A stretch of 64,000 bases of DNA, from positions 69,532 through 133,531 of the forward strand of contig CAZJDY010000020.1 in NCBI GenBank assembly GCA_964544915.1, given 5' to 3'. Positions 10,638 through 51,073 of the stretch are shown in pieces (the first letter of the stretch is position 1; every line of letters starts with the position of its first letter). The notes under the pieces were generated by a model. It worked only from the letters and a program-made list of their open reading frames with translations, ran no database searches and had not been told where the DNA came from. The DNA comes from an uncultured Methanomassiliicoccaceae archaeon (GTDB taxonomy: Archaea; Thermoplasmatota; Thermoplasmata; Methanomassiliicoccales; JACIVX01). Made by a program: the position numbers and the translations under genes.

Positions 10638-11159
10638 ATGTCTATTGAGAACGAGTTGATTCTTGGGATGCTGAGAGGCGAGGGAGGGTTCAAGGACGCG
10701 CTCAGGAGGGTGTTGGAGGAAGACCTCCAGATGAGCGTTCACGAATTCTGCGCAAGGACCGGTCTGTCCCTCAGCACGATCTACAAGATAATGCAGGAGA
10801 AGCGAGAGCCGAACCTGAGAACCGTCAGGCACGTGATCAAGGCCGTCCGCAAGCTCGAGAAGCATCCAGGTGGGAACTTCATCGCGGTCATAGCCAGCAG
10901 GCCTGTTCTGGATAAGATCGAGGAACGTATCGTGAGAATCGGGGGAAAGGCCATCAGGGTGAAAGAGTACCCGGCGTCGACGATGGAGGAAGCGATAATC
11001 TCCGCCGTAATGGCCGAGAGGGACGGAGCGCTCGCTGTCGTGTGCGCACCGATCATCGCTCCGACGATTGAGAAGATACTCTCGATTCCGGTTTCGGTCG
11101 TGATACCGAGGGATAGTATGCTTAGGGCTATCGAGAGTGCCGCTGAGAAGACGGTCTAG
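10638..11159 (+). CDS. HTH (XRE-like) domain protein with an uncharacterised C-terminal domain
   Basis: 173 aa. [32 protein letters not shown] is a helix-turn-helix. Starts 6 nt after the trxB stop. Confidence 0.5.
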
Positions 11160-11911
11160 TGACTAGCGACCGTCTCTCTTTCCAGCTCGGCCAGTATCTT
11201 CTTCCTGAGAGAAGCGAATTCGACGCTCGCCCTGTCTCTAGGGCGCTCCCACTCGACGTTGAAAACATACCTGATATTTCCCGGACGGGCGGACATCACC
11301 ACCACTCTGTCAGCAACGAAGACAGCCTCGTCGACCGAGTGCGTGATGAAGACGACGGTCTTCTTCATCTCCGACCATATGCGAAGGAGCTCCTTTTGCA
11401 TCAGGTTCCTTGTCTGAGCATCCAGAGCGCCGAACGGCTCATCCATCAGGAGAATCTCCGGATCATTCGCGAGCGCCCTCGCGATTCCGACCCTCTGCTT
11501 CATCCCGCCGGAGAGCTCGTACGGATGGGAGTTCTCGAAGCCCTTCAACCCAACGAGATCGATATATTTGTCCGAGATCTTCCTTCTTTCTTCCTTCTCA
11601 ACCTTCCTGATCTCAAGACCGAATTCGATGTTCTTTCTCACGGTCCTCCACGGGAACAGGCCGAACTCCTGGAACACCATTCCCCGGTCGGAACCCGGGC
11701 CAGTTATCTCCTTGTTGTTCAATAGGATTGTACCGCCAGTGGGTTCCTCCAGACCGGCTATGATCCTCAGAAGGGTGGTCTTTCCACAGCCCGACGGGCC
11801 GAGCACGCAGACGAACTCTCCGTCCATTATGTCGATACTGAAATCCTCGATTGCGACTAGCTCGCTTTCGTCCTTCTTGAAGGATTTGTGTAGATCCTTG
11901 ATCGAGAGGAT
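11156..11911 (-). CDS. NitT/TauT-family (sulfonate/nitrate/taurine type) ABC transporter ATP-binding protein; start codon non-canonical (see findings)
   Basis: Walker [10 protein letters not shown], signature LSGGMKQR, Walker B LLMDEP. The conserved N-terminal strands [11 protein letters not shown].. lie upstream of the first ATG (11827) with no ATG/GTG/TTG available. The 5' end is set at ATC 11911..11909. Confidence 0.8.
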
Positions 11912-12735
11912 TACTTCATGCCCATCCGTCTTGACACCCTCCTTTCAATATACCCACTGAGCTCCGTGGTCACTATTCCAAGTATTGCGATCACGACCAT
12001 GCCTGCGAACATGTAGTCATATTTGCCAACTAGTGACATCTGCGAGATGTAGAGTCCTACGCCCCCTCCTTGCGCCACTATCATCTCAGCTGCGACTATG
12101 CACATCCAGCCAATCCCCAGGCCAATACGTATGCCCGTCATCAAATACGGTATCGTGGACGGCAGAATGACCTTTCTGAACAGTGTCGGTTTGCTCGCTC
12201 CCTGAGTCTTGGCGACATCGAGCAAGAGTGGATCGACGCTTTTCACCCCGAAGATTACGTTCGAGAGCACTGGGAAGAAGACACCAAGGAACACTGGCAT
12301 GATAGGGCCCCAGAAGACCCCTGCAACTATGAAGAAGAAAGGAGCCCATGCGATGGGAGGTATCGGTCGGAATATTTCGACTATCGTCCTTCCGAAGGTG
12401 TCAGCCACCTTCGAGAAGCCCATGAGCAGCCCCAACGGCAATGCAAGGACGAACGCTATGGCGAATCCCCAAAGGAACCGAACAAGGCTTTGACTCATGT
12501 GTTGCCACATCGTCACGCCCGTGGTAGGATCCGGGTTCTGGAAAGCATCGACGAACGCTACGCCGACCTCGTATGGCGAGGGGAAGAACGCCGAGTGCAG
12601 TAGGCTTGAAAGCCCCCACCATGCAAGAATGAACACCACAAGGGAAACGATGACGATTGTGGTGTTCTTCAACAACCCGCGTTCCGAATCGTGTGAAAGG
12701 AAGTGCTTCAGTCTCCCAAGGGTGTTGGGTTCCAT
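11911..12735 (-). CDS. NitT/TauT-family ABC transporter permease
   Basis: 274 aa, polytopic, with an EAA-like region [26 protein letters not shown]. Confidence 0.85.
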
Positions 12736-12782: not shown

Positions 12783-13877
12783 TCAGGCAGGTTTGAGCTT
12801 CACGGTGTAACCATGTGCATTTGCCACTGAGAGCAACAGCAGGTACTGTATCGACGACGCTCCTGGGGTTGCGATCGTCTGCCCCTCCAAATCCTCCCAG
12901 GAGTGGATTGTCGGGCTGACGATTATCGCCGAACCTTCGCTGTTCGCTTGAGCGACGATTATCGTGTTCACACCGCTGTTGAGGTGGAACAGAATGGCCG
13001 GCGGACTTCCCAAGTAACCCATGTCGGCTGCCCTTCCAGCGAATGCAGTCATGATGCTTCCGCCAGCGCCGTATCCCCCTGGAAGTGGGTCCACCGTTCT
13101 CACTCCGTACTTCTCGAAGAGCGTCTTGCCTTCGCCAACGGTCTTGTTCTCCGCAACGACCCTTGCGAATTGGTGGAGATCTCCGGTAAGGTACGCCATC
13201 CTGACTTCTCCCACTATGACGTCGCTGGGCATGATGGAGTCCGCGCTGGCGAGGTAGCTGCTGTCAACGTAGTTGGTGACAAAGTCGTTGACTGAGCTGT
13301 ATCCCCTAGCAGCCAGCTTGTCTTCTTTTATCTGTCCGAGATCGATGTACGACTGGGTGAACATCTTCAGCCCATCAACGAATTGCTGGTTCATCCTGTA
13401 GTCTAGAGTCATATGGCCCATGGCGGCCGCCACAACTGAATCGTTGCGGTTACTGAACTTACCACCTATGTCTAGTAGCAGATTGTAGTCATCGCTGCCC
13501 GGATTCGCCCATGCGGCTGCAATCCACTTGTTGGCCTCTATGTGGGCTTTCAGAACCCTCATGACCAGGTTGGGGTGGTTCTGGGCGAATGTTTTATCAA
13601 CTGCCACCACGCAGCAGGGATGGTGTGGCCAGATGTCTCCTGACCAGTTCAGCACCACAGCTGTTCCATCGAGCAATGAATCGGACACGTACGGTTCCCA
13701 GCTCACGCCACCAGCAACGTCACCTCTTTGAATCGCAACCTTCTGGTTCACGGGGGGAACTGTCAGCCAGTATACGACCTTCCCTGTCTCTTCTCCGCCG
13801 AGGCATCCCGCGGCTGCGATCCCGGTGACTGCGATGGCAACGACCAGAAACACGGAAATTGCAGGATTTGGTTTCAT
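12783..13877 (-). CDS. NMT1/SsuA-like ABC substrate-binding lipoprotein
   Basis: Start moved to ATG 13877, preceded by GGTGAT. The signal peptide ends in a lipobox-like AAAGC. Last gene position of an SBP-permease-ATPase operon. Confidence 0.75.
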   Translation of the reverse strand: MKPNPAISVFLVVAIAVTGIAAAGCLGGEETGKVVYWLTVPPVNQKVAIQRGDVAGGVSWEPYVSDSLLDGTAVVLNWSGDIWPHHPCCVVAVDKTFAQNHPNLVMRVLKAHIEANKWIAAAWANPGSDDYNLLLDIGGKFSNRNDSVVAAAMGHMTLDYRMNQQFVDGLKMFTQSYIDLGQIKEDKLAARGYSSVNDFVTNYVDSSYLASADSIMPSDVIVGEVRMAYLTGDLHQFARVVAENKTVGEGKTLFEKYGVRTVDPLPGGYGAGGSIMTAFAGRAADMGYLGSPPAILFHLNSGVNTIIVAQANSEGSAIIVSPTIHSWEDLEGQTIATPGASSIQYLLLLSVANAHGYTVKLKPA

Positions 13878-13907
13878 CGGATCACCTTGAGTCAAAAAAA
13901 TACCATA

Positions 13908-13916
13908 CATATAAAT
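13908..13916 (-). promoter_or_regulatory. TATA-like box for the SBP-permease-ATPase operon
   Basis: Minus-strand ATTTATATG, about 31 nt upstream of ATG 13877. Confidence 0.35.
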
Positions 13917-14119
13917 GGCTTTTCTCCATAGAGGAAATAAGTGTCCTAATTGTACGTGTTGAAGGCGAATCTTGCACATCTGGACGCTTAAACAATTGTT
14001 CGTATGACTTGATTGTCCGTCTTCTCGTTCTTGTTACATAACAGAACACAATGCAAGAGATAGGTGAACCCGAAAGAAAAGAATTATAGGGCTTACTTTG
14101 TATCAATGGGTCTGATAAT

Positions 14120-49682: not shown

Positions 49683-50348
49683 ATGGCATTGGACTTAATC
49701 ACTAACAACCTTGGGTTCTTCTTCAGCGGCGCGATCCTCACCTTGGAGATCAGTCTCAGTGCGATCGCGATCGGCTTCGTCCTCGGCATCCTGATGGGTC
49801 TAGGCAGGGTCTCAAGAGTACTGCCTGTGAGGCTCTTATCCACAGGATACGTTGAGGCCCTAAGAGGAACGCCTCTTCTCATCCAGATATTCATAATATA
49901 CTTCGGGTTACCGTCGGTCGGGATCTATCTCAGTCCACTCGTATCCGGAATACTCGCGGTGGGGTTGAACAGCGCAGCATATCAGGCCGAGATCATCAGA
50001 GGCGGGATACAATCGGTCCCGAGGGGACAGCTGGAGGCCGCGAGATCCATCGGAATGAGCTACACCCAATCGATGCGCTACGTCGTTCTTCCGCAGGCGC
50101 TGCGACTGATAATCCCTCCGATGACTAACGAATTCATAACATTGATAAAGGACTCATCTCTAGTGAGTGCGATAGGAATATGGGAGCTGACACTAGTAGG
50201 CAAGGAGCTAAACGCAAAGTACTTCGAGCCCTTCCAGGTCTTCATCTTCGTCGCAATCGTGTACTTCATAATGACGTACGCGACCTCGAAGATCATGCGG
50301 AGAGTGGAGAAGAAGTTCAAGATTCCGGGATACGGCGCAGAAGCCTGA
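49683..50348 (+). CDS. Polar-amino-acid ABC transporter permease (His/Glu/Gln/Arg family)
   Basis: 221 aa. [10 protein letters not shown] and the EAA loop [29 protein letters not shown]. Confidence 0.9.
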
Positions 50349-51073
50349 TCGAAGCAGTCGACATCCACAAGTCGTTCGATGGCCTCGAGGTCCTGAAGGG
50401 CGTCAACCTGTCGGTCTACAAAGGAGAGGTAGTTGTAATCATTGGGCCTTCCGGGAGCGGGAAGAGCACATTCCTGCGCTGCCTGAACAGACTAACGGAG
50501 CCGACGAAGGGGGAAGTCTACTTCGACGGCGTCAAGATCACTGGCCCTGATGTAGACATGAATAGGATCAGGGCCGAGATTGGGATGGTCTTTCAGAGTT
50601 TCAATCTCTTCTTGCATCTCACCGCTAAGAAGAACATCATGCTCGCCTTGACGAAGGTCGAGGGAGTCGAAGTCGGAGAGGCCGAGAAGAAGTCGATGGA
50701 GGCGCTCGAGCGAGTTGGCCTAGCAGATAAGGCGGACAGCTATCCGGGGCAGTTGTCCGGCGGGCAGCAGCAGAGGGTCGCGATCGCGAGAGCGGTTGCG
50801 ATGAACCCAAAACTGATCATGTTCGACGAACCGACGTCCGCGCTCGATCCTGAGCTAATAGGTGAGGTGCTCGATGTCATGAACTCTCTGGCAAGGGGCG
50901 GGATGACCATGATCGTCGTCACGCATGAGATGGGATTCGCGAGGGAGGTCTCAGATCGCGTCATCTTCATGGACCATGGCATCGTGCTCGAGGAAGGCGC
51001 TCCAGCGGAAATCTTCACGAATCCTAAGCACGAAAGGACCAAGACATTCTTGAGGCGATTGTTCAAGGAGTGA
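50345..51073 (+). CDS. Polar-amino-acid ABC transporter ATP-binding protein (GlnQ-like); homologous start position is CTG overlapping the permease stop (see findings)
   Basis: Walker [57 protein letters not shown] aligns residue-for-residue with the MIE..N..K.FG N-terminus of GlnQ-type proteins. Confidence 0.85.

Follow-up and report, generated by a model that had tools for sequence, protein, structure and literature searches.

A probable ACG start codon in the transporter ATPase gene of a Methanomassiliicoccales archaeon

The stretch of DNA analysed here (the window, 64,000 nt from a Methanomassiliicoccales archaeon (JACIVX01), assembly GCA_964544915.1, contig CAZJDY010000020.1, positions 69,532-133,531 of the forward strand) carries on its minus strand a gene for the ATPase of a NitT/TauT-family ATP-binding cassette (ABC) transporter, the conserved N-terminus of which is not preceded by any canonical start codon. 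The gene seems intact, its translation starting at an ACG codon (11929-11927) on a strong Shine-Dalgarno (SD) sequence with coupling to the translation of the upstream permease gene probably helping, a reading to which we give a probability of about 0.6. That ACG is the codon actually used, that methionine is the first residue and that coupling contributes are points we infer. The ancestral ATG would have mutated to ACG, the initiator Met-tRNA would pair with this near-cognate codon, and AAGGAGGGTG within the 3' end of the permease gene, 8 nt upstream, would position the ribosome on it. Ribosomes finishing the permease, the stop codon of which lies 16 nt beyond the ACG, would unfold the region and may re-initiate there (termination-reinitiation), and a coupling of this kind would raise the local supply of ribosomes and so make a weak start codon tolerable. 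Termination-coupled re-initiation may plausibly contribute. The elements of the start region are these.

11945 to 11947, minus strand: in-frame TGA that closes the ATPase frame upstream (codon-by-codon read).
11935 to 11944, minus strand: Shine-Dalgarno sequence AAGGAGGGTG, with the core GGAGG at 11942-11938, within the permease coding region and 8 nt 5' of the ACG (duplex energy, conservation).
11927 to 11929, minus strand: ACG, the putative start codon, aligned with the ATG, GTG or TTG at which the orthologues begin (junction alignments).
11911 to 11913, minus strand: permease stop codon TAA, 16 nt 3' of the first base of the ACG, the two genes overlapping by 19 nt.
11909 to 11911, minus strand: ATC at a TAATC junction, the start candidate of an earlier, sequence-only reading of this DNA (codon read).
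11825 to 11827, minus strand: first canonical ATG, the internal Met35, from which gene callers predict a truncated protein of 223 aa (open reading frame (ORF) calls).

Read codon by codon on the minus strand, the TGA at 11947-11945 is followed by 39 sense codons without ATG, GTG or TTG, up to the ATG at 11827-11825, and Walker A starts nine codons after that ATG, all of which is as the sequence-only reading had described it. The chance of 39 codons without a canonical start is about 0.14 by our own estimate ((58/61)^39) and is not remarkable by itself; the loss of the start counts as real because of the comparison with orthologues and not because of the rarity of such a start-free run. Junctions for this comparison were drawn from 27 metagenome loci, 12 species-representative genomes and 3 further contigs (about 45 loci, given below by L numbers where they need to be told apart). 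Orthologues at 88-91% identity are 257 aa long, with the N-terminus MDGNEV... or VDGHKVVLSIK, and the orthologous junctions have a common architecture of GAAAGGAGGGTG, 5 or 6 bases, the start codon, and then GAT GGG MAT GA. The start codon there is ATG in most, GTG in L006, L023, L098 and L106, and TTG in L107, and it falls within the final 19 nt of the permease gene. The orthologues with one of these three codons exactly in line with the ACG of the window span 62-91% identity. The earlier claim that only an AUC fused to the permease stop codon could start the gene is therefore superseded, the ancestral ATG/GTG/TTG start lying 18 nt farther upstream where the window reads ACG 11929-11927; the orthologue alignment upholds the absence of a canonical start in this genome, but points to ACG, not to ATC, as the likely start codon. 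Among the distant relatives L009, L012, L101 and L102 that place is taken by a non-start codon and an ATG overlapping the permease stop is used instead, and so on the evidence of these junctions the ATPase family employs both start arrangements. The gene shows the features of one with a near-cognate start: no canonical start before the conserved residues, a codon one base away from AUG where the orthologues begin, and an SD sequence at functional spacing.

Strength of SD pairing was taken as the duplex energy of the 22 nt upstream of a start with a generic 16S tail (the anti-SD). Before the ACG this is −13.7 kcal/mol, rank 2 among the 68 ORF starts of the window (median −5.3), with the 1st percentile of 3,000 random window positions at −11.9 kcal/mol. 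The energies before ATC 11911 (−6.2 kcal/mol) and before ATG 11827 (−6.8) are both at background level. Across orthologues the SD motif is conserved, and at a spacing that fits the ACG and not the ATC. No stronger SD sequence that would compensate for the codon in the ACG lineages is evident, the close relatives with ATG or GTG sharing the same AGGAGGG core. Two AAG triplets also occur in the open stretch, of which one belongs to the SD sequence and the other, just before the ACG, is AAA or AAT in L084 and L086.

These results bear directly upon the initiation at ATC that the sequence-only reading proposed, in which ribosomes terminate at UAA 11913-11911 and re-initiate on AUC 11911-11909 to give a protein (M)LSIKDL..., and which now appears distinctly unlikely. 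The TAATC junction is real, the ATC indeed sharing the last A of the permease stop codon, and parallels for a start at this place exist: some family members begin here (MTLSIK, MILSIK, MSLSIR), L009, L012 and L102 use here the ATG of an ATGA overlap, and a clade of the GlnQ-like ATPase considered below has the junction TTAATC, with ATC as its only near-cognate codon and as the start annotated by NCBI. However the pairing before the ATC is no better than background, the conserved strong SD sequence is spaced for the ACG, and AUC fails as a common solution, the position reading GTC in four other ACG lineages (L004, L083, L084 and L086) which keep the ACG and are likewise without a canonical start. 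These four read GTA GTC after a TAG stop where the window reads GTA ATC. The ATC is thus private to the closest relatives of the window, and ACG is the sole near-cognate codon common to all the genomes without a canonical start.

Whether the gene is alive at all can be asked from the pattern of substitution. Among the ACG-bearing sequences the ratio of nonsynonymous to synonymous polymorphism (pN/pS) is 0.07-0.21 for codons 35-257 and 0.12-0.26 for codons 2-34. When the count is restricted to codons 8-34, which are single-coded and upstream of any canonical start, codons 2-7 being read in the permease frame as well, pN/pS among the ACG genes is 0.08-0.20 (binomial p of 5e-5 to 0.03 against neutrality). 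A stop codon or frameshift was seen in none of the eight ACG-bearing ATPase sequences. The purifying selection on codons 8-34 taken with the lack of stops and frameshifts argues that the segment is translated in the ACG genomes, in agreement with the earlier claim that this conserved N-terminal segment must be translated. Structure points the same way: the closest solved structures are CmpD (9u9z_D, E=7.6e-64) and NrtD (8wm7_D, E=5.1e-60), with the alignment beginning at residue 5 of the 257-residue reading.

It is in this light that an inactivated ATPase, or one made only as the truncated product from ATG 11827, with the start lesion a step en route to a pseudogene, has to be weighed, and such a fate seems very improbable. 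Gene callers do yield the 223-aa product, and switches from AUG to a non-canonical start are very rare in annotated genomes, at 3 of 61,358 ancestral AUG starts (2 CUG and 1 AUU) in a survey that depends on annotation and is blind to ACG (PMC5622118). Against this stand the strong purifying selection across the ACG lineages, on the whole gene and on codons 8-34 alike, and the lack of any stop or indel in the eight sequences. The product from Met35 would moreover be an odd ATPase. The Pfam ABC_tran match opens 7 residues upstream of Met-11827, and both the first strand (ILSIKDL) and the 'KSF' aromatic residue precede that Met; since this N-terminal strand and the KSF aromatic align with CmpD and NrtD, a Met35 product would be without them, lacking both the strand and the A-loop region. 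Nor is the methionine conserved, close relatives having M, R, K or E there, and in L004, which has R, no canonical in-frame start occurs before a GTG at codon 42, within the strand leading into Walker A. A start at ATG 11827 was rejected on these grounds, being unconserved (R in L004, K or E elsewhere) and at the cost of structured N-terminal residues.

A fusion of permease and ATPase by −1 ribosomal frameshifting within the 34-nt doubly open stretch, with the internal SD sequence as stimulator, is scarcely credible. The ATPase frame is indeed −1 relative to that of the permease and open from 11944, and an SD-like sequence within a coding region can stimulate frameshifting in bacteria (dnaX, prfB), but there is no slippery heptamer of the form X_XXY_YYZ between 11961 and 11911, and the same SD sequence and overlap occur in orthologues with ordinary ATG or GTG starts, so that they are explained as a ribosome-binding site.

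Returning to initiation at ACG, the codon is not a peculiarity of one assembly. It recurs in L001 and L002 (Logan), in L003, L004, L083 and L086 (JGI) and in L084 (ENA). Of these L001, L002 and L003 match the window exactly across the junction, while L086 stands at 96%, L004 at 92% and L083 and L084 at 90% identity. L001 and L002 come from different runs; their identity to the window is 99.75-99.9%, and the differences fall at synonymous sites and leave the junction unchanged. In the protein database the truncated 223-aa call is spread over eleven clusters at 91-100% identity, some of them seen on 6 to 11 contigs. Base-call or assembly error, which had been held open as an alternative for the ATPase start, is rejected with the same junction in at least eight independent assemblies. 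Equally hard to credit is C-to-U editing that makes an AUG in the mRNA, or a mixed ATG/ACG population of which the majority allele was assembled, as we know of no mRNA editing in archaea and those assemblies, all with ACG, come from different samples. This is so even though chloroplasts are well known to turn ACG into AUG start codons by editing (PMC9845219) and ATG and ACG coexist among close populations (L007/L008 with ATG and L083/L084 with ACG, about 96% identical).

The history of the allele is less simple than its distribution. A neighbour-joining tree of the ATPase gene places the window, L086 and L004 in one clade and L083 and L084 with the ATG-bearing L007 and L008, each grouping being recovered in 200 of 200 bootstraps and monophyly of the ACG sequences in 0 of 200; in nucleotide identity L083 and L084 are 96.4-96.7% to L007 and L008, against about 80% to the window clade. 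In a sliding-window comparison of L083 with L007, however, identity is about 96% downstream of the ATPase start and falls to about 70% in the permease, upstream of that start; the final 80 nt of L083 ahead of the start are nearer to the window clade. The drop in identity at the junction in L083 and L084 therefore indicates a recombination breakpoint there (equivalent to about 11930 in the window), and their ACG may have been brought in from another lineage along with the upstream segment. Two independent T-to-C origins of ACG, as first read from the tree, were dropped once the breakpoint was seen, and the claim is now confined to two diverged backgrounds. Either history, two origins or a single old allele now found on backgrounds 20-25% apart, would argue that ACG is tolerated by selection. 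The L083/L084 and L007 populations exchange transporter modules at the boundary between the permease and ATPase genes.

Several points weigh against ACG as the start. In E. coli reporters ACG gives initiation with an N-terminal Met at roughly 0.1-1% of the level of AUG (bioRxiv 10.1101/063800), which would be very little for a stoichiometric transporter subunit, and a review of archaeal initiation names only AUG, GUG and UUG (PMC7531240). The dual coding of codons 2-7 means that selection cannot tell the ACG from a start a few codons downstream, and the breakpoint that L083 and L084 carry exactly at the junction makes it doubtful whether the two ACG backgrounds go back to separate mutations. 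Finally, ATC 11911 is also available in this genome, where it may add a minor re-initiation product. On the other side, ribosome profiling in Haloferax volcanii places about 30% of putative alternative initiation sites on near-cognate codons (PMC7261190), and experiments in H. volcanii and E. coli have demonstrated termination-reinitiation coupling with an intragenic SD sequence (Huber et al. 2019, PMC6728339), with coupling over a longer overlap known for phage fr (−38 nt; PMC12548453).

Two further genes of the window had been placed in the same situation, and they do belong there. The first encodes a GT4 glycosyltransferase (47514-46435, minus strand) and opens TAG CTC ATA AGA ATC CTC GTT..., read as LIRILVLNWRD, with more than 40 GT4 homologues beginning M[RKN]IL..NWRD exactly at the ATA (47511-47509) of the window. 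No close orthologues of this gene were found, the nearest relative in another genome being 65% identical, and so the case for an ATA start is made from the N-termini of homologues alone. An in-frame upstream ORF of 19 codons on the minus strand, from ATG 47574 to TAG 47517-47515, ends 3 nt before the ATA. Re-initiation after the upstream ORF, pyrrolysine read-through of the TAG and plain near-cognate initiation, for which there is an SD-like GGAAGGGA of −8.0 kcal/mol, are all possible routes. Stop codons of window ORFs of at least 150 aa are TGA in 34, TAG in 17 and TAA in 2, and TAG being a common stop argues against a general amber read-through.

The second is a GlnQ-like ATPase at the stop codon of its permease (TGA 50346-50348), with the junction GC CTG ATC GAA (CTG 50345-50347, ATC 50348-50350). 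Its junctions were compared across loci L087-L097 and L163-L165. Outgroups at 77-81% identity read TTGATC, in which the canonical TTG forms part of a TTGA overlap; the window clade reads CTGATC, as do L087 and L095-97; and the sister clade L088-L094 reads TTAATC, leaving ATC as the only near-cognate codon. Among the relatives NCBI annotates as starts both the CTG (in CTGATC) and the ATC (in TTAATC), and Prodigal-type callers have stored the protein as fragments of 171, 199, 226 or 227 aa. There is no SD sequence before this junction (−4.2 kcal/mol). From the alignment it appears that an ancestral TTG start eroded to CTG, or to TTA-ATC in the sister clade, and that a near-cognate start has been kept at this overlap of stop and start while the proteins diverged by at least 13%. 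A search of the window for more such cases, among ORF leads and gaps with a frame open across an upstream stop, gave none beyond the three, and displacements of a few codons would escape it.

If the ACG start is confirmed, the finding of three eroded starts within 64 kb would suggest that such events may be more frequent in this lineage than surveys based on annotation report (3/61,358, PMC5622118). It could be, although we think it unlikely, that this wetland and sediment lineage is relaxed in its choice of start, at least for genes reached by ribosomes fresh from an upstream ORF, with ACG, CUG, AUC and AUA serving as stable starts at several per cent of genes (3 of about 60 in the window) and each being kept in related populations. 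Were that so, a lineage-specific change in the initiation machinery (aIF1, the initiator tRNA or the mode of re-initiation) would be expected, along with systematic N-terminal truncation in the current annotations of these genomes. A literature search for start-codon peculiarities of Methanomassiliicoccales gave nothing specific. The window was also considered as a source of a peculiar initiator tRNA, and this was rejected: its CAU tRNA at 1212-1298 has G1:C72 and no GGG/CCC anticodon stem, which makes it an elongator Met or Ile2 tRNA and uninformative here. That tRNA gene is one of two on the minus strand that contain introns, of about 15 nt in the CAU gene and of 22 nt in a tRNA-Asn(GUU) gene at 2803-2896.

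The ATPase gene is the last of a three-gene operon on the minus strand (13979-11156), with an NMT1-like binding protein, a BPD_transp_1 permease and the ABC_tran ATPase in an order that is kept in L083 and L086.

12783 to 13979, minus strand: NMT1-like substrate-binding protein, the first gene of the operon (ORF limits; Pfam NMT1_2 E=1.2e-21).
11911 to 12735, minus strand: BPD_transp_1 permease (Pfam E=2.9e-24).
11156 to 11929, minus strand: NitT/TauT-family ABC transporter ATPase, the ACG to TAG frame of 257 codons and a stop (Pfam ABC_tran E=2.7e-34).

The motifs of the ATPase are canonical and in order, including the Q-loop, with GPSGCGKT (Walker A) at residue 44, LSGG at 139, ILLMDE (Walker B) at 159 and ITH (H-loop) at 195, and its database relatives are from Methanomassiliicoccales archaea, the name given by JGI being 'NitT/TauT family'. 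In the permease, the T-to-C change that gives the ACG also alters a codon (11926-11928) from TGG to CGG, turning the tail ...SKWMGMK into ...SRRMGMK. This Trp-to-Arg change sits five residues from the C-terminus, and selection on either frame could have acted on the base. Overlap of the permease and ATPase genes is 19 nt if ACG is the start and 1 nt if ATC is; across the window overlaps of 4 to 29 nt are common in co-directional gene pairs if each gene is counted from its first canonical start. The longest form of the substrate-binding ORF begins MCKIRLQHV..., and the part resembling a signal peptide runs from an internal Met (MKPNPAISVFLVVAIAVTGIAAAGC), so the real start is probably that internal ATG, before MKPNPA....

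As a protein the ATPase is ordinary and sits well with the NitT/TauT ATPases of CmpD, NrtD and SsuB type, having every ATPase motif together with a BPD_transp_1 permease and an NMT1-like binding protein, and its start codon alone is unusual. With the known near-cognate starts of prokaryotes it shares a one-base variant of AUG at the orthologous start, served by an SD sequence, in a functional gene and with the codon persisting across lineages. The infC gene starts with AUU, and NCBI translation table 11 admits rare CUG, AUU, AUC and AUA starts. The two sister genes in the window use codons accepted in this way (ATA, CTG or ATC), whereas ACG is absent from the table 11 list and therefore out of reach of NCBI and of Prodigal-type callers; for this genome the database has the 223-aa truncation. 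In contrast to infC, no autoregulatory role is evident for the ATPase start. If ACG is confirmed as the start, every public copy of the ATPase from ACG-bearing genomes is such a 223-aa truncation without the N-terminal strand, which annotation that takes account of orthologues would fix. The literature searched yielded no natural ACG start for any archaeon or bacterium, which is no proof that none exists; if confirmed, the ACG would be a natural and evolutionarily maintained archaeal start codon outside table 11.

The archaeal pairs in which coupling has been studied (PMC6728339) resemble the permease and ATPase genes, which are co-directional, encode one complex, and overlap by 19 nt with a strong SD sequence in the upstream gene. 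In the studied pairs, however, canonical starts go with overlaps of 1 or 4 nt, whereas in the window the overlap is longer and the restart codon near-cognate. The same codon is used well beyond prokaryotes. Initiation at ACG occurs in eukaryotes and their viruses (Sendai virus C', mammalian genes), where scanning and a Kozak context are needed, while the ACG of the window has an SD sequence; in plant organelles ACG is corrected to AUG by editing. The archaeal factors aIF1, aIF1A and aIF2 are of eukaryotic type (PMC7531240), and by analogy a eukaryote-like tolerance of near-cognate codons in archaea is conceivable. Start recognition in archaea joins such factors with SD pairing of bacterial type, and an ACG with a strong SD sequence beside a terminating ORF would, if confirmed, be a test case for how the two work together.

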